From positions 1-16,769 of the forward strand of contig JALUEE010000034.1 of NCBI GenBank assembly GCA_027053075.1: DNA of 16,769 nucleotides, read 5' to 3'. This stretch comes from a candidate division WOR-3 bacterium (GTDB taxonomy: Bacteria > Hydrothermota > Hydrothermia > B15-G9 > WFZT01). Positions 1 through 6,039 of this stretch are shown here, in pieces. The translations under genes and the position numbers were made by a program. Under the pieces are notes generated by a model. It did no database searches and was not told the DNA's origin. It was given only the letters and a program-made list of their open reading frames with translations. Position 1 is the first letter of the stretch. Each line of letters opens with the position of its first letter.

Positions 1-2
1 AC

Positions 3-146
3 CTCGAGAAGCTTGAAAAACTGGGTAGGGCTGATGTGGAGTATGTTGACCCATTTCGGGTAATCAAAAAATTCCGGCTCTCCCGCCCCACCATTGTGTA
101 TGCCAACAGCCTAAGCCACAAATCCGGGGCAGGGTTTAAGGACTAA
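3..146 (+). CDS. 3' end of an unidentified protein (partial, runs off the window edge)
   Basis: Frame is open from position 3 to TAA at 144-146: LEKLEKLGRADVEYVDPFRVIKKFRLSRPTIVYANSLSHKSGAGFKD*. Convergent with the next gene. No motif recognised. Confidence 0.35.
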   Translation, partial: LEKLEKLGRADVEYVDPFRVIKKFRLSRPTIVYANSLSHKSGAGFKD

Positions 147-212
147 CTGTACATGGGAGTATAAGACAGGTGAGGGATTCCTCTTAAAAAACATCCCGGA
201 ATGAATGAAAAC

Positions 213-3020
213 TTATTTTCCAAGTATCTTTAAAAGTTTTTCGGCTTCGTCGTAGGCCACTTTGTAAGTATAGTCGGGAGGGCCGTCACAGGTGGCAAGT
301 TCGTGGGCCTTTAGAGCATGCTCACGGGCCTTTTCTTTATCTCCTTCAGCCAGGGCTATCTCAGCAAGGAAGAGGTGCACATCTGCGCCCTGAAGCACAT
401 ATCCACTGCGTTCAGTGATGATAAGAGCCTCTTCTGCAAGATTCAGGGCCTCTTTGATTCTACCCTGATCGTGGCGCAGGCGGGCCAGGGCCAATAAAAT
501 GTTGGCCTCATGATCTACCATGTTGATGGCTCGGCAGCGGCGCAGGGCCTCGTTCAGGTGGCGCTCGGCCGCGGGCAGGTCGCCGTTGAGGCGGTAAGCC
601 GCGCCCAAAAGCCAGTGGGCGCGCACATAGTCGCGCTCTACGGGGTAAGTGGTACGGGCGTCCTCGTCAGCCAGTTCCAGGGCGCGGCGGGCGGCGCGCA
701 GGGCTTCGTTGGCCCGCTTCTTGGAAAAGCGCTCCCGCGCCATGAGCAACGCCCGCAGGGCTCGGTAGGCCCAGACGATGCCCTGGGATTGCACCTCCTT
801 TTGCTTCTCGAACATCCCCAGCGCGGCGTCCAGTTCCGCTTCCGCCTCGGTCCAGCGGCCGCGGTAGGCCAGCAGCCGCCCCAGTTCCTGGTGGCCGATG
901 GCCTCGTCGAACGCATCCTCGATCTCGCGGCAGAGGGCGATGCGGCGGCTCAGGTTGGCCTCCGCGGCCCGCAGCGCGCCGATTTTCATCTGGTCGTCGG
1001 CCAGGTTCCCCAGGCCGATGGCGAGGTTTTTCTTGTCATTTGCATTTTCGTCAAGGCGCGCTGATATTTGCAACAAAGGAATGGCACGGGCCGGTTGACC
1101 GGAAAGACTATAGGAGTTTGCCAGTTCATTCGCTGCCCACGACTGGGCGCGCTCTGACTTCAGCCGCGGCGGCCTGTCCTCCCCGTCGGGGAACAGGGCG
1201 CGCAGGAGTTCGATGATGAGTTGGTAGGCGCCGAATTGGTAGTAAAGAGGCGTGGGGACGAGCCGTGCTTGGAGCAACTCAAACGCTTCGTCGTACCGCC
1301 CGGCCCGCACGGTGTGGTGGTACAGTTCAATCACCGGGGTCAGGTCGTCTAAGGTCTGTACCCGCTGGGGCGGGGGCACGGCGGCGAAGTAGTCCCGCAG
1401 GCGGGCGTGGGCGGCGGTGCGCTCGTCCCCGGTCAGGCGGTCGTAGGCATAACGGCGCACGATGGGGTGCAGGTCGTAGCGCCCACGGGCGGGGTCGTAG
1501 TGCACCAGGCCGCGGGCGACCAGGTCGCGCAGGGCGGCGTCCAGGTCAACCTCCTCCCCGGCCACGGCCTGCAGGGCATCGTACTCCACCGGCCCGCGGA
1601 AGCAGGCGATGACCCCCAGCAGGCGTTGGCGGTCGGGGGGCAGGCTTTCGTAGGCCCGCTGGAGCACGTGGTGCTGGCGCTGCTTGAGGTCACCTGTCAC
1701 ATCGAGCCCCTCTGCAACGGTTATATCTCCCGGTTTTCGTGGGTCCTTCAAAATCAATCCTGCCAGCAGAGCCAGACTGAGAGGGTGATAACCATAACGT
1801 TCAGCCACGACTTCCATCTCAGCTCGATTGCCGCGAATACCACGGGCACGGAAATAGGCTACAGCATCATCAGGGGACAAACCCTCCAATTCGACTTCCC
1901 GGCAGTTGGCAAGAAGGTCATCACCATGAGGCGATTCCAGGATGCGTGGTCGAAGACGTGTAGTAATCAGTACTTTTCCACTCAGATGAGGATAGGTGGC
2001 AACTTTTCTGAGGAAATCCTCAGCGGAAAGACTTATACAATCTCGCTGGCGGGCATGCTCCTCCTCATCGGAACTTACACTTTCATCGCCAAGATAGGGA
2101 GCCATCATTGTATTATACGCCCGGAGTGCCCGCTCAAAGCCATCCAAGACAAGCAGGACGCCTGGTTCACGCAGGCGATTCAATAAAGCCTCCACCTGTT
2201 GCGAGGGCAGGGCATCTACCTCCTCCATACCGAGATATTTCAGGGTGGCTTTCAGAAAAGATTCAAACTCACGCTGGTCATAAAAACTCCACCAGACTAT
2301 TTGCGGCCATTTGGTCATATCAACGTCATTCTTCAGCCAGTACCATACCAGAGCACTCTTTCCAAATCCCCCAAGTGCGCGCAATACTAAGATATTGTGT
2401 TTATCATCCTCATTAAGCCATTCATTTAACATCTTCCGCTCATTCCCCCTGCCGGTGAAGTGGTCAGGTAGAGGATAGGGATGAGGAAGGAACCATGAGA
2501 AAGTATTCCCTGTGTCAGAGTCATTGTTTGAATCTGGCTTAGCAGGTGGAGAAGCAGATGGATTAGGAGCTCCCAGAGCTTTGAGCAACTTCTGCCACTC
2601 CAGATTCCAGTCATAGGGATCAACAAAATTTAAATACGTTAGATATTTTAAACGTAGTGGTAGATTGCATCGCTCCTTGAGCATGGGAATCAGTCGGCGC
2701 TTCTGGTTGGCCGGGTCCAGGGTTTGTAACATGAGAGATTCAAACTCAGTCCAGTCACTTTTCAGGTAGGCTGGGGTAAGCACAAGCACGGTCTTCCGGC
2801 TTTTCTCTATACATCGTTCCATCTCTTTCACACCGGGCGCACCAGCCTTGAAATCACGAAAATCAATACAGACACGCAGGCCAGCTCTCCTAAGTGCTGG
2901 GAGTAGTTCATTTCTCACCCAGTCACTGTCTTTCGAGCTGTACGAAATAAATACATCATACTTATATCCGCCCATCTTTTGCCCCTTGGAATTTTTATCC
3001 AAATTTATTTTTGTTCCCAT
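213..3020 (-). CDS. TIR domain - STAND (NB-ARC-like) NTPase - winged helix - TPR protein (NLR-like, probable anti-phage defence)
   Basis: TIR: YDVFISYSSKD..RDFKAG..IEKSRKTVLVL..SDWTEFE. NTPase: FTGR..E lead-in, Walker A ALGGFGKS (2355-2378), Walker B LLVLDGFE, sensor-1 VLITTR, GYHPL (GxP), YDLHPIVRRYA (MHD-like). C-terminus is TPR-like helical repeats. True start may be ATG 2975 (M16), which has AAGGGG upstream; ATG 3020 is only 3 nt after a TAAAAT. Confidence 0.9.
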   Translation of the reverse strand: MGTKINLDKNSKGQKMGGYKYDVFISYSSKDSDWVRNELLPALRRAGLRVCIDFRDFKAGAPGVKEMERCIEKSRKTVLVLTPAYLKSDWTEFESLMLQTLDPANQKRRLIPMLKERCNLPLRLKYLTYLNFVDPYDWNLEWQKLLKALGAPNPSASPPAKPDSNNDSDTGNTFSWFLPHPYPLPDHFTGRGNERKMLNEWLNEDDKHNILVLRALGGFGKSALVWYWLKNDVDMTKWPQIVWWSFYDQREFESFLKATLKYLGMEEVDALPSQQVEALLNRLREPGVLLVLDGFERALRAYNTMMAPYLGDESVSSDEEEHARQRDCISLSAEDFLRKVATYPHLSGKVLITTRLRPRILESPHGDDLLANCREVELEGLSPDDAVAYFRARGIRGNRAEMEVVAERYGYHPLSLALLAGLILKDPRKPGDITVAEGLDVTGDLKQRQHHVLQRAYESLPPDRQRLLGVIACFRGPVEYDALQAVAGEEVDLDAALRDLVARGLVHYDPARGRYDLHPIVRRYAYDRLTGDERTAAHARLRDYFAAVPPPQRVQTLDDLTPVIELYHHTVRAGRYDEAFELLQARLVPTPLYYQFGAYQLIIELLRALFPDGEDRPPRLKSERAQSWAANELANSYSLSGQPARAIPLLQISARLDENANDKKNLAIGLGNLADDQMKIGALRAAEANLSRRIALCREIEDAFDEAIGHQELGRLLAYRGRWTEAEAELDAALGMFEKQKEVQSQGIVWAYRALRALLMARERFSKKRANEALRAARRALELADEDARTTYPVERDYVRAHWLLGAAYRLNGDLPAAERHLNEALRRCRAINMVDHEANILLALARLRHDQGRIKEALNLAEEALIITERSGYVLQGADVHLFLAEIALAEGDKEKAREHALKAHELATCDGPPDYTYKVAYDEAEKLLKILGK

Positions 3021-3061
3021 TTAATTTTAAAGCCCCTCAACTGTGAAATCATGTCATTCAC

Positions 3062-3210
3062 GAACGTGTTCAGAAAATCTCAGAGTATGAGAATTTGAAG
3101 AGGAACCTCCCTACTTTCCTTCTTCCCAACTCACGAAAGTGCGTGAGGAAGAGAATGGGAAGGGGAACCTCAGGATTGGAAGAATTTGATGTGTTTTCGA
3201 AAATATCCTC
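3062..3210. repeat. Intergenic MITE/REP-like element, copy A (degenerate; core inverted relative to copy B)
   Basis: Left end GAACGTGTTCAGAAAATC resembles the ends of copies B and C; right end TTTTCGAAAATATCCTC is degenerate. Reverse complement of the core 3121-3153 (CTCTTCCTCACGCACTTTCGTGAGTTGGGAAGA) aligns with the copy B hairpin CCCCCACGCACTTTGTGCGTGGGGGAGA. Confidence 0.55.
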
Positions 3211-3229
3211 TAAGTGAATCTCCCATTTA

Positions 3230-3258
3230 TAGTCAATATGTGGGGTTTGCTATATTAT
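3230..3258 (+). promoter_or_regulatory. Candidate sigma70 promoter for the ZIP gene
   Basis: TAGTCA(3230-3235)-17 nt-TATTAT(3253-3258), 8 nt before ATG 3267; no Shine-Dalgarno. Confidence 0.35.
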
Positions 3259-3266
3259 AAAATGTC

Positions 3267-4058
3267 ATGGTTGATTCGCTTGTTAATCTATTTGTACATC
3301 TTTCTGGTGATAAGGCTATCTGGCTAGGGTTCTGGGGTGGCCTTACAACAACCCTGTTCAACACATTCGGTGCCCTGCTTGTGATGTTTTTCCGTAAACC
3401 CTCAGACCGATTCATGGATGCATCACTGGGCTTTGCTGCAGGTGTAATGCTCGCAGCAAGCTTTACAAGTCTCATCATACCGGGTGCGGAAATGGGAGGA
3501 ATTGTGCCCGTTTTAATCGGTATCCTCATAGGCTCCTTCTTTCTTGACCTATCTGACCATCTTATTCCGCACATGCACAATATTATTGGTACTGAGGGAA
3601 TCCATCCGGAAAGAGTAAAAGCCGTCTGGCTTTTCATAATCGCTATTACCCTTCACAACATGCCCGAAGGGCTGGCCGTGGGTGTAGCCTTTGGGGCAGA
3701 TAGGATAAGGGATGCCATTGTTCTCATGATTGCCATCGGAATCCAGAACATTCCAGAGGGATTTTCTGTCTCGCTCTCCGCTGTAAGTGCGGGATATAGC
3801 AGGGGATTTTATGCAGTTTATACGGGTATTCGCTCAGGACTCGTGGAGATACCACTTGCCATGCTTGGAGCGTGGGCAGTTAATCAGGTAAAGGTGATAA
3901 TCCCCTACGCCATGGGATTTGCAGCAGGTGCCATGCTCTACGTTATAAGTGATGAAATCGTCCCTGAAACCCACCGAAAGGGACACGAGAGATACGCGAC
4001 ATTTGGTACCATTATCGGTGTGGTTATCATGCTTTATCTGGACGTTGTATTCGGATAG
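3267..4058 (+). CDS. ZIP family divalent metal (zinc) transporter, GufA/ZupT-like
   Basis: GFAAGVML, His-containing loop DHLIPHMH, TM4 ITLHNMPEGLAVG, TM5 IGIQNIPEG, FAAGAMLYV..DEIVPE; about 8 hydrophobic helices. Confidence 0.93.
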   Translation: MVDSLVNLFVHLSGDKAIWLGFWGGLTTTLFNTFGALLVMFFRKPSDRFMDASLGFAAGVMLAASFTSLIIPGAEMGGIVPVLIGILIGSFFLDLSDHLIPHMHNIIGTEGIHPERVKAVWLFIIAITLHNMPEGLAVGVAFGADRIRDAIVLMIAIGIQNIPEGFSVSLSAVSAGYSRGFYAVYTGIRSGLVEIPLAMLGAWAVNQVKVIIPYAMGFAAGAMLYVISDEIVPETHRKGHERYATFGTIIGVVIMLYLDVVFG

Positions 4059-5179
4059 GGGATTTTGCTCACAAAAAATGAGCTTATGAGTGAGAACAAT
4101 ATCCCCAGCATGAAGGTCGCATGTATCCCATAGCTGACTTTGATCAGCATTCCAATGTAAGGACCGCCTGATGACACAAGTCCATTTATAGTGCCTATCG
4201 TGCCTATGGTGCTTGCCCTCTTTGATTGCGGAGAAAGGGAAGTGACTATCGTATTGTAAGCGATAAAAATGAGCTGGACCGCACCAAAAGATATCATAAG
4301 AAGGAGTGTATTGAGTGTGCCCGGCATCAAATGTGACCAGATGAAAATAGTGGTGCTGTGAACCAGCATGGCGGTAATGAAGAATCTTACAAGATTTTCG
4401 CTTTTCAGTATCCTTGTAGCTGCAATGGAAACCAGTAGTGAGAAAAGAGTGGAATAGGAAATCAGCAGGTTAATCCGCCTCTCGATCAAACCGAGACTTT
4501 TCATGTGGAGTGTGATAAATGGCCCATTGATGGTGATGGAAAAGAGAAGATAAAGAAATATTGAACCTGATAGGAAGATCAAGACATTTCGGCTGAAAAT
4601 CCCTGTAAAATCCAGGCTCCCTCGTTTCTTCATCTTTAGTGTCTCATCGAGAATAAAATGGCGGATCAGTGCTGACAGCAGATAAATGGCGGCTGTAAGC
4701 ATCATAAGCTCGCGAATATTTAGAAATTTTAGTAAAAAGAATCCCACGAGTGGGCCTGTTGCAAATCCCCCGGCAACCGAAAGTTCAAAAATCGAGAACG
4801 CCTTCTCTCGGTCAATGCAGGATTCACCGACAAGGGAGAGAAATGCCGGCCATTGGAGTGAAGAAAATATTGCAGTAAGTGCGTAAACCAGAGTCACAAA
4901 CCACCAGACCTTTGCAAGAGACATCGAAAATATCAGAAACGATGCCACATAGGTTGGGATAACAATCGCCGGCTTTCGTCCCCATCTATCTGCAAAGAAA
5001 CCGCCAAAAATCTGAAATCCAGTTCCACCGAGGGTAAAAAGGGTGTACGAGACCCCTACCATGCGGTCATTTGCCCTAAGTTGCTTTAAAAATAGTGGCA
5101 GCAAATAGAGCCACGAGCTCAAGCTCATGAGCAGCAAAAATACTGTACCCGAGATGACGAAGAGGTTTTTCCTTTTCAT
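4034..5179 (-). CDS. Major facilitator superfamily transporter
   Basis: 381 aa, ~12 TM segments, MFS motif A GGFFADRWGRK, second-half echo SPQSKRASTIG. Confidence 0.88.
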   Translation of the reverse strand: MKRKNLFVISGTVFLLLMSLSSWLYLLPLFLKQLRANDRMVGVSYTLFTLGGTGFQIFGGFFADRWGRKPAIVIPTYVASFLIFSMSLAKVWWFVTLVYALTAIFSSLQWPAFLSLVGESCIDREKAFSIFELSVAGGFATGPLVGFFLLKFLNIRELMMLTAAIYLLSALIRHFILDETLKMKKRGSLDFTGIFSRNVLIFLSGSIFLYLLFSITINGPFITLHMKSLGLIERRINLLISYSTLFSLLVSIAATRILKSENLVRFFITAMLVHSTTIFIWSHLMPGTLNTLLLMISFGAVQLIFIAYNTIVTSLSPQSKRASTIGTIGTINGLVSSGGPYIGMLIKVSYGIHATFMLGILFSLISSFFVSKIPYPNTTSR

Positions 5180-6039
5180 GAACCTAAAGTTATCAGGATT
5201 GCGCCAAGAACCATCAACACGCTGCCAGACATTCTTGGCAGGATATCCTTTTCTTTAAATAGCATCCAGCCATAAAAAACGCTGAAAATAGCCGAAAGTC
5301 TCTTAACAGAAATCATATAACTTACGAGGGTTAGTCTAATGGCTGTCATGTGGAAGATGGTCATTAAGGCATAGAAAAATCCCGCTCCCACGAGCTGTAG
5401 CCGGCAATTTTTCCACTGGCTCTTCTTCATGCCAACAATCCCGGGCCCAAGGAGCACGAGATTCATTACGATGGTGTAATAAAAGCTGAAGAACACCGGA
5501 CTCGAATGCAGCACGAGCATCTTTCCGCTAATGGACGTTATGCTGTATAAAAAGGCAACCAAAATCACGAGCTGAACCCCGCGATTTCTAAATGTAAGCT
5601 TCAGGGGAGCAAAAATCCCTTTCTTCAGATTCCGTATTCCCATCACATACGAGCCTGCCACGATGAGCAAAATCCCCGCTCCGGCAATCAGGGAAACCCT
5701 TTCACCGATGATTATGTATCCATTAACAATGAGAAATAGAGGGGTGAGAGACAGGAAAGGCAGAGCCATGGAGATATCTGAAATGGAGATCGCTTTTACG
5801 TAAAGGAATAGAGCGGCTGTTTCCAGAGGAATCCATACCAGATGCCAGAGAAAGAAAGTCTTATCGAGGTGGGGAATAGGTACTTTTAGAAATGGGATGA
5901 GTACAAAGGGGAGGGCAAAGAGGTATCTTATCCATACCACGAAGTATTCATTAAGGGAGCAATGCCTGTAAGCCGCTTTTACAAAGGCATCTGATGTCGC
6001 CCATCCGAAAGCTGATAGCAGCGCGTAAATAACCCACAT
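5176..6039 (-). CDS. EamA/DMT family transporter
   Basis: 287 aa, two 5-TM repeats with IGERVS..GILLIVAG and FKEK..GSVLMVLGAILI; ATGA overlap with the MFS gene. Confidence 0.9.
   Translation of the reverse strand: MWVIYALLSAFGWATSDAFVKAAYRHCSLNEYFVVWIRYLFALPFVLIPFLKVPIPHLDKTFFLWHLVWIPLETAALFLYVKAISISDISMALPFLSLTPLFLIVNGYIIIGERVSLIAGAGILLIVAGSYVMGIRNLKKGIFAPLKLTFRNRGVQLVILVAFLYSITSISGKMLVLHSSPVFFSFYYTIVMNLVLLGPGIVGMKKSQWKNCRLQLVGAGFFYALMTIFHMTAIRLTLVSYMISVKRLSAIFSVFYGWMLFKEKDILPRMSGSVLMVLGAILITLGS

Follow-up and report, generated by a model that had tools for sequence, protein, structure and literature searches.

A mosaic gene for a predicted NLR-like receptor in a WOR-3 bacterium, likely built by exchange between family members

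How bacterial NLR-like receptors acquire new specificities is an open question, on which a single locus of a deep-sea vent bacterium of candidate division WOR-3 bears. The stretch of DNA analysed here (the window, 16,769 nucleotides (nt) in length) is an entire contig, JALUEE010000034.1, of the assembly GCA_027053075.1, a genome of 2.44 Mb with 43.9% GC, and harbours on the reverse strand (213-3020) a gene for a TIR-STAND NTPase-TPR protein of 935 amino acids (aa). An earlier note on this DNA had described a GC-rich block at 470-1695 inside the gene and attributed it to one recent recombination with a homologue from a distant high-GC organism, by which the ligand-sensing part was replaced while the TIR and ATPase parts were kept. 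Did such an exchange occur, where does it begin and end, and did it occur only once? The evidence presented below argues that the gene is a true in-frame mosaic, which likely arose via repeated homeologous recombination between members of its family at short conserved motifs, a reading to which we assign a probability of about 0.74. The swapped TPRs would be expected to alter sensing.

GC-rich tracts within one reading frame

The gene and its parts are listed below; GC3 stands for the GC content at third codon positions.

213-3020, reverse strand: TIR-STAND NTPase-winged helix-arm-TPR gene, 935 aa (920 aa from the second Met at 2975)
2586-2963, reverse strand: TIR domain, aa 20-145, with W90-x3-E94 (TIR_2, E 1e-23); GC3 0.47
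1701-2468, reverse strand: nucleotide-binding domain and helical domain 1, aa ~185-440, with presumed Walker A K221, Walker B D293, sensor-1 R355 and GxP 410-413; GC3 0.44
1682-1691, no strand: upstream crossover at the conserved motif that starts the winged-helix helix 445-458, placed by the change-point (codon 444), a donor-like contig and the structural model
1140-1682, reverse strand: GC-rich tract A, codons 447-627, winged helix, arm and start of TPR1; GC3 0.88
1029-1139, reverse strand: GC-poor patch, codons 628-664, most of TPR1; GC3 0.42; a minority TPR1 type that apparently sits on unrelated backbones
522-1028, reverse strand: GC-rich tract B, codons 665-833, TPR2-TPR5; GC3 0.88
463-521, reverse strand: downstream crossover zone, codons 834-853; GC3 0.67; a GC-rich homologue in run X4 aligns to 463
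213-462, reverse strand: GC-poor tail, rest of TPR6, TPR7 and capping helix; GC3 0.45

The hand counts by which the block had been recognised (48, 44, 45, 30, 23 and 32 of 60) proved to be exact. The GC content is 0.675 at 470-1695, compared to 0.48 upstream and 0.49 downstream, and the block contains the GC-richest 500-nt interval of the genome (0.692) among 23,937 (mean 0.439, standard deviation (sd) 0.037). The GC3 change-point of the gene is the strongest among 345 open reading frames (ORFs) of at least 500 aa, with a gain in Bayesian information criterion of 142, the next ORF reaching 49. The best change-point model has five segments, namely codons 2-443 (GC3 0.43), 444-627 (0.89), 629-664 (0.42; window positions 1029-1136), 665-833 (0.88) and 835-935 (0.49). 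Hence the GC-rich region is real, but it is not a single block, being composed of two tracts around a GC-poor TPR1 at 1029-1139. The abrupt upstream switch reported near 1690 (aa ~444) was recovered at codon 444 by the change-point and at 1682/1683 (codon 446/447) by donor-like contigs, and the downstream end of tract B is diffuse, extending from codon 833 to ~853 (522-463). As had been claimed, the frame is uninterrupted through all 935 codons, and no other coding sequence of the window is GC-rich (GC3 0.43-0.49 in the 11 other complete ones).

The earlier note had allowed that GC3 might turn out flat once amino acid composition is taken into account. This is not the case: the GC3 expected in the host for the same amino acids is 0.46-0.47, compared to 0.88 in both tracts (z 11.4 and 11.1), which rules out composition as the cause, and the N-terminal part, the GC-poor patch and the tail all match host codon use (z -0.6 to 0.3). 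A family-wide rise of GC3 in this region is ruled out as well, since the difference between block and NTPase averages -0.056 (sd 0.09) in 79 homologue loci and amounts to +0.445 here. The single homologue near this value, L025 (+0.385), provides no family precedent, because it matches from aa 493 only and its upstream segment is not homologous. Therefore, neither amino acid make-up nor family habit accounts for the tracts. Furthermore, the tracts show no amelioration (GC3 0.88 versus 0.83 in GC-rich family genes), and the exchange would therefore be recent on the amelioration scale.

The same 935-aa protein was recovered from two assemblies, possibly built on the same reads. In its AlphaFold2 model (pLDDT 88.4, built on 118 alignment rows), the domains of which were named by our own reading, the nucleotide-binding domain occupies aa ~185-378, helical domain 1 aa 383-438, the winged helix aa 445-528 and the arm aa 531-607, followed by seven helical hairpins at aa 623-910, with TPR profile matches found as well; according to this model, the crossovers would lie near domain or repeat borders. 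The best Foldseek match is PH0952 (PDB 6MFV; E 1.6e-16, TM 0.38/0.50, 16% identity), other matches being RPP1, CED-4 and Apaf-1. The closest atlas clusters of the protein are NB-ARC/TPR, and the Pfam NB-ARC score is 21.2 bits (E 1.9e-4) at a curated cut-off of 23.5. Residues K221, D293, R355, H412, P413 and H518 are invariant in 118/118 alignment rows; we take them to belong to Walker A, Walker B, the sensor-1 Arg, the GxP motif and, in the case of H518, an MHD-like His in the winged helix. E94, presumably equivalent to the catalytic Glu of the W-x3-E motif in enzymatic TIR domains, is kept in 94 of the 118 rows and falls in a gap in 11. Judged from sequence, both the ATPase motifs and the TIR W-x3-E motif are intact in the encoded protein. 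Sequence and model thus combine the conserved motifs with an N-terminal effector (TIR) and a C-terminal repeat sensor (TPR), the architecture of STAND NTPases/NLRs, and the gene is predicted to encode an NLR-like receptor with a putative immune function. Since tract A comprises the winged helix, which is part of the ATPase core, together with the arm, the exchange was not limited to the ligand-sensing part.

Junctions and alleles in vent communities

DNA of the window is present in 13 sequencing runs, nine of which are labelled hydrothermal vent metagenome, counting two that were included for sharing a sample or study (X4, X6, X7 and X8 are unlabelled); the contig records cited are from among the matches listed. 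In the likely source run, X1, the gene is covered by four contigs with no differences, spanning 41-1037 (depth 56), 1008-1317 (52), 1288-1677 (46) and 1648-3736 (79). The first is unbranched and joins tract B, the tail and the neighbouring gene of the host, and the last is unbranched across the upstream switch. The junction at 1682/1683 is also bridged, with at least 31 nt per side, by X4 record 13 (1593-1874; 7 differences, 2 gaps), X7 record 30 (2 differences) and X3 record 6 (4 differences), that is, in three runs from two studies other than the likely source. Shorter bridges are provided by X6 record 20 (25 nt on the short side) and X3 record 7 (30 nt).

These contigs bear directly on the suspicion, voiced in the earlier note, that the gene might be a chimera of metagenomic assembly. 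In that event, the host and a GC-rich neighbour would share 40-50 identical nt near 1641-1682, at which the assembler passed from the one to the other. Such an identical stretch does exist, and in X1 the block is made up of several contigs that overlap by 30 nt, with the depth falling after 1677 (46-56 over 41-1677 versus 79 upstream), although this drop may come from a second allele or GC bias. However, a contig that runs unbranched over 1648-3736 leaves no donor branch at 1683 in X1, tract B lies on one contig with the host's neighbouring gene, X4 record 13 spans the switch in another study, and two assemblies, even if possibly from the same reads, yield the same protein. Parts of the block are without cover in X10, which carries no evidential weight. 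Taken together, chimeric assembly is unlikely, and clearly so.

Contigs that leave the gene at its boundaries are of two kinds, the second of which defines one further feature:

1641-1647, no strand: exit point of an AT-rich alternative winged-helix allele (X4, X6, X7) and contig branch point in X1

The first kind is donor-like. X4 record 14 matches 55/56 nt at 1627-1682 and then diverges into GC-rich DNA, matching 22 of the next 30 nt (hand count), where nearly the same peptide is encoded by different codons (hand reading). GC-rich contigs have loose ends at 1682 likewise in X7, X3 and X2. In X4, the alignment to a GC-rich homologue (463-791; 43 differences, 9 gaps) stops at 463, beyond which the homologue is still GC-rich.

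The second kind carries host-type upstream DNA, which X4 record 15 and X7 record 31 leave at 1645 and 1641, respectively, to enter an AT-rich, in-frame allele of the winged helix; X6 has a loose end at the exit point of this allele too. The X4 contig of the allele rejoins the gene at 1482, with 83% identity and the same length. The allele retains the first 40-50 GC-rich bases and is therefore itself a recombinant and no clean ancestor. Both parental types, the GC-rich donor-like and the AT-rich alternative, occur in vent communities. In addition, X6 contains a 62-nt patch (1767-1828) with ~20 differences between matching flanks, inside helical domain 1.

As a separate observation, an X4 contig closely matches the GC-poor 35-nt stretch at 1804-1838 and is GC-rich at its two loose ends, a hint of transfer the other way round.

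Recombination with a GC-rich homologue, as first proposed, is thus supported by the codon-matched GC3 excess, the flat homologues, the junction bridged elsewhere and the donor-like and alternative alleles.

Insertion site, donor and family

The TIR and ATPase parts had been regarded as those that were kept. They are not native to the host, however, since the whole gene is an insertion:

150-3187, no strand: accessory segment carrying the gene; the relative G004 has 272 other nt there and the same flanking genes
1-146, forward strand: end of a convergent host gene, which continues from contig C81 (receiver-like N terminus, judged by eye)
3267-4058, forward strand: divergent host ZIP transporter gene on the other flank of the insertion

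G004 shares 92% identity with the window at 1-149 and 94% at 3188-5873, and the TIR-ATPase backbone is considered foreign because the site is empty in this close relative. The gene is absent from 5/5 same-genus genomes searched with this query, and only 3/272 genomes of the phylum match the protein at E 1e-30, including the source genome, the other two with 42% and 28% identity. The NTPase groups with homologue P0003 at 100/99, on a long branch, and a cluster mate of P0003 is labelled Anaerolineae. In X4, the ZIP gene shares contigs with a TIR end of 95% identity, and therefore related hosts carry the gene at the same site.

Purine/pyrimidine-rich, hairpin-like repeats were seen at 3083-3180, the upstream border of the insertion, and in the empty site of G004 (L112:2710-2830). 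The homologues P0004 and P0031 have in-frame repeated insertions in TPR6 that resemble translated repeats of the hairpin-like kind.

The searches for a source within the genome and on mobile elements were negative. No second copy of the gene that could have acted as a paralogous donor was detected in the assembly by blastn and tblastn, the window at 1-3400 contains short, weak repeat families only and no near-identical tandem sensor repeats, and neither viral contigs nor plasmids gave a match to a donor or carrier. These results also concern targeted mutagenesis, e.g. by a diversity-generating retroelement (DGR), as the source of the odd composition. DGRs are reported, in the part of the source available (PMC10907252), to diversify putative sensors in multicellular bacteria. 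Here, however, neither a further copy nor a template is present in the assembly (no search was aimed at a reverse transcriptase), and the change spans ~1.1 kb of synonymous third positions with no short variable region, which makes such an origin hardly credible.

The wider family is represented by 90 loci (Chloroflexota 31, Planctomycetota 17, Acidobacteriota 12, Cyanobacteriota 10, and 13 without a phylum), mostly in GC-rich genomes. In close protein pairs, the mean identity is 88-94% in the ATPase, the winged helix and the last repeats versus 65-80% at aa 576-800; P0122 and P0003, for instance, are 96-99% identical up to aa 627 and 56% at 701-750. Identity at fourfold sites drops at aa 576-800 in 9/10 close pairs, which were hand-picked from the top of the list and share members (L023/L063: 83/93 versus 1/10 in TPR1). 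This drop points to recombination, beyond amino acid selection alone. GC3 change-points occur in 23/80 homologues (one duplicate dropped) versus 6/52 neighbouring ORFs, a weak difference (p 0.03) in a comparison where the homologues include kin and the control ORFs are shorter.

A particular type of TPR1 motif, that of the GC-poor patch, is shared by 10/206 homologue rows (some of them one gene twice), from Chloroflexota and Planctomycetota where known, and forms a GC-poor patch in a GC-rich gene in two of the three rows having DNA. In the TPR1 tree (38 rows) this protein and 7 others form a 100/98 group; on the NTPase tree the same group needs 8 changes and is rejected (p 2e-35 in the approximately unbiased (AU) test). 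As the group was defined on TPR1, the NTPase side alone is free of circularity. One TPR1 type thus appears to sit on unrelated ATPase backbones. The TPR region of the family seems to be patchy, and the gene looks like one case of recurrent shuffling. Together with the alleles, this family pattern and the conflict at TPR1 do not seem to fit the single recombination event originally assumed.

Patches were also observed in individual homologues. The Chloroflexota homologues L062, L056, L088, L038, L019, L052, L093, L074 and L063 contain AT-rich patches with GC3 down to 0.12-0.28, which recur at aa ~574-630 and 700-750, some being shared by descent. The Heliomicrobium homologue L036 is a mosaic as well, in which GC3 changes from 0.70 to 0.47 and finally, near aa 499, to 0.78. 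We do not favour local hypermutation with an AT bias as the origin of the GC-poor patches of homologues, since the codon pattern is common to several Anaerolineales genes (judged by eye), an indication of descent.

If the mosaic is real, it may still have been built in an earlier carrier or mobile element and have arrived whole, the shuffling being neutral by-catch and not selected diversification. That the gene is an insertion absent from the same-genus genomes agrees with this, as does the codon use of the backbone, which matches that of mid-GC family genes roughly as closely as that of the host. The patch at 1767-1828 in X6 falls in the ATPase part, and tract A is not sensor, both of which suit by-catch. 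On the other hand, several alleles lie behind the same upstream DNA in the same samples, the X4 contigs tie the TIR end to the ZIP gene, no plasmid or viral carrier was found in the searches above, and the loss of identity in the family is concentrated at aa 576-800. Hence arrival of a finished, neutral mosaic is unlikely.

Several results weigh against the reading of the gene as a mosaic produced by recurrent exchange. The junctions are documented by assembled contigs and not by raw reads; the exit point of the AT-rich allele at 1641 is passed by just two records, X4 record 13 and X7 record 30; the downstream and patch junctions are bridged in X1 only, and the junction near 1030 sits on a 30-nt contig overlap there. 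The Anaerolineales homologues are kin, so that their patches are not independent, and convergence may be behind the TPR1 group, the tree of which is circular since the group was chosen from TPR1 residues. Searches of 272 host-phylum genomes by DNA and by protein detected no close donor; in the class of G272 (401 genomes) the DNA match reached 74% at most, and the protein identity per tract among 120 proteins was at best 75-77%. In segment trees of 34 proteins (this one and, for each of four segments, the 12 most identical of 117 homologues), grouping with P0003, the sister of the backbone, was not rejected by the AU test for tract A (p 0.09) or tracts A and B (p 0.27), the true donor lying outside the tree set, and in the tract B tree this protein and P0003 are weakly together (56/53). 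As to the immune function, the PADLOC 2023 library gave partial TIR and TPR matches only and none to an Avs profile, and 13/145 neighbouring ORFs have PADLOC matches, a count without background control. Metagenome contigs yielded 11 donor candidate loci, none close, and searches with short proteins gave at best 69% and 66%. Of the distant high-GC donor invoked earlier, a GC-rich homologue is supported, but no particular taxon.

The AU tests on the two tracts, in which grouping with P0003 was not rejected, leave room for one old transfer from a GC-rich donor followed by uneven amelioration, in which the TIR, ATPase, TPR1 and tail drifted and the tracts lagged behind. The family resides chiefly in GC-rich genomes, and the Arg codons of the N-terminal part are still mostly CGN and not host-like (AGR 5/32 versus 68% in the host), as would be expected. 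Nevertheless, the switches are abrupt, the tracts are not ameliorated, the point where near-identical GC-rich contigs part from the gene coincides exactly with the switch and the region also occurs as an AT-rich allele, and uneven amelioration accordingly appears very improbable. Repeated recombination between family members remains the preferred reading.

A few observations concern other loci. At C47:112843-117697 (reverse strand) the source genome carries two tandem Wzc-like polysaccharide co-polymerase/kinase genes (named by eye) with near-identical central ~480 codons, where GC3 is 0.67-0.69 versus 0.36-0.44 at the ends, due to gene conversion, import or assembly collapse. At C95:10602-15873 (reverse strand) two tandem ~850-aa genes are near-identical over the C-terminal two thirds (caspase-like end by eye) and have unrelated, AT-rich N termini (GC3 0.24-0.27 versus 0.49-0.50). 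Other GC-rich stretches of this genome (0.58-0.64) are C23:51301-54500, C43:13601-14400, C62:1-900, C33:69501-70100 and C46:601-1100. In the window, a multi-haem cytochrome c gene (8219-12015, reverse strand) follows downstream of a pair formed by a GAF histidine kinase and a LuxR-type response regulator. A promoter and terminator scan gave a chance-level result, and no RNA datasets are among the runs listed as containing DNA of the window.

A possible mechanism and its known counterparts

The following course of events may be proposed. A TIR-STAND-TPR gene would have entered the lineage horizontally, after or during a long stay in DNA of ~45% GC3. Family members of 60-75% identity could recombine through short, near-invariant motifs such as the one that opens the winged helix; crossovers at conserved sites of this kind would preserve frame and domain order, and the tracts would therefore be replaced in register. 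In this way a GC-rich homologue, probably from a vent neighbour, e.g. an Anaerolineae-type organism, may have replaced the region from winged helix to TPR5, TPR1 being either spared or overwritten by another mobile TPR1 type. The exchange may have taken place in the present host or in an earlier carrier. By analogy with general STAND biology, a ligand bound by the TPRs would free the protein from its ADP-bound state and allow it to oligomerise, whereupon the TIR would either consume NAD+ or generate a signal.

A broader proposal is that sensors are exchanged across phyla, TPR units and longer tracts moving in register between Chloroflexota, Planctomycetota and unrelated vent bacteria via conserved motifs and being selected for new phage specificities; this is conceivable but, in our opinion, doubtful. 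If true, it would be a prokaryotic counterpart of the sensor shuffling of plant and fungal NLRs, without internal repeats or a retroelement, and the present gene would be an example observed while the process is still under way in nature. Mosaicism of genes is in itself a familiar phenomenon. Full-text literature searches, which missed most subscription papers, turned up no description of sensors being exchanged in register among bacterial STANDs. Surveys describe sensors common to several clades and whole genes moving horizontally, and at this locus the exchange is within one gene. The locus offers a crossover mapped to ~10 bases, with donor-like and alternative alleles in the same communities, and natural alleles that share TIR and ATPase and differ by defined tracts, down to one TPR, would be ready pairs for testing which repeats set specificity.

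Among known systems, the TPR-sensor STANDs PH0952 of Pyrococcus horikoshii (PDB 6MFV) and MalT share the NOD-arm-TPR order; they differ in that the present protein has an N-terminal TIR, the relation is distant and mosaicism is not at issue there. Autoinhibition between NOD and sensor is described in the accessible part of PMC6468293. Antiviral STANDs (Avs) and the 589 STAND clades of Lee et al. 2026 (PMC13581612) have, in the portion available, the same effector-STAND-TPR architecture; there, immune effector domains count as a criterion for defence, 90 sensor families are distinguished, and sensors are reported to be common to several clades, with extensive horizontal transfer. The main text, as far as available, makes no mention of swapping, nor of recombination in the evolutionary sense, and six homologue accessions are absent from 7 supplements of that paper. 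The TIR-AP-ATPase-TPR/EAD-linked conflict proteins of multicellular bacteria (Kaur et al. 2020, PMC7159879, available in part) have the same architecture and phyla, and homologue P0015 carries EAD7. Unlike in those systems, no vWA-MoxR or FxSxx peptide genes stand beside this gene, its neighbours being the ZIP and receiver-like genes, and with an FxSxx_TPR score of 57.6 bits at an NCBIfam cut-off of 300 the protein falls outside the FxSxx group.

The closest mechanistic precedent is the movement of target-recognition domains in Type III methyltransferases (Furuta and Kobayashi 2012), where, according to the part of the paper available (PMC3467074), recombination at the conserved motifs on either side exchanges the specificity region, with distant bacteria among the sources. 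The unit moved there is one defined DNA-recognition domain, whereas here tracts of 60 nt to more than 500 nt extend over the winged helix, the arm and single TPRs. In fungal NLRs, repeat units (TPR, WD40) likewise move between NLR genes, as described in the accessible part of PMC13449251; the fungal arrays consist of near-identical internal repeats, whereas the TPRs of the present gene are not internally conserved, repeat position is kept and a large GC gap is crossed. The gene thus works like methyltransferase domain movement and fungal NLR repeat exchange, being a member of neither.

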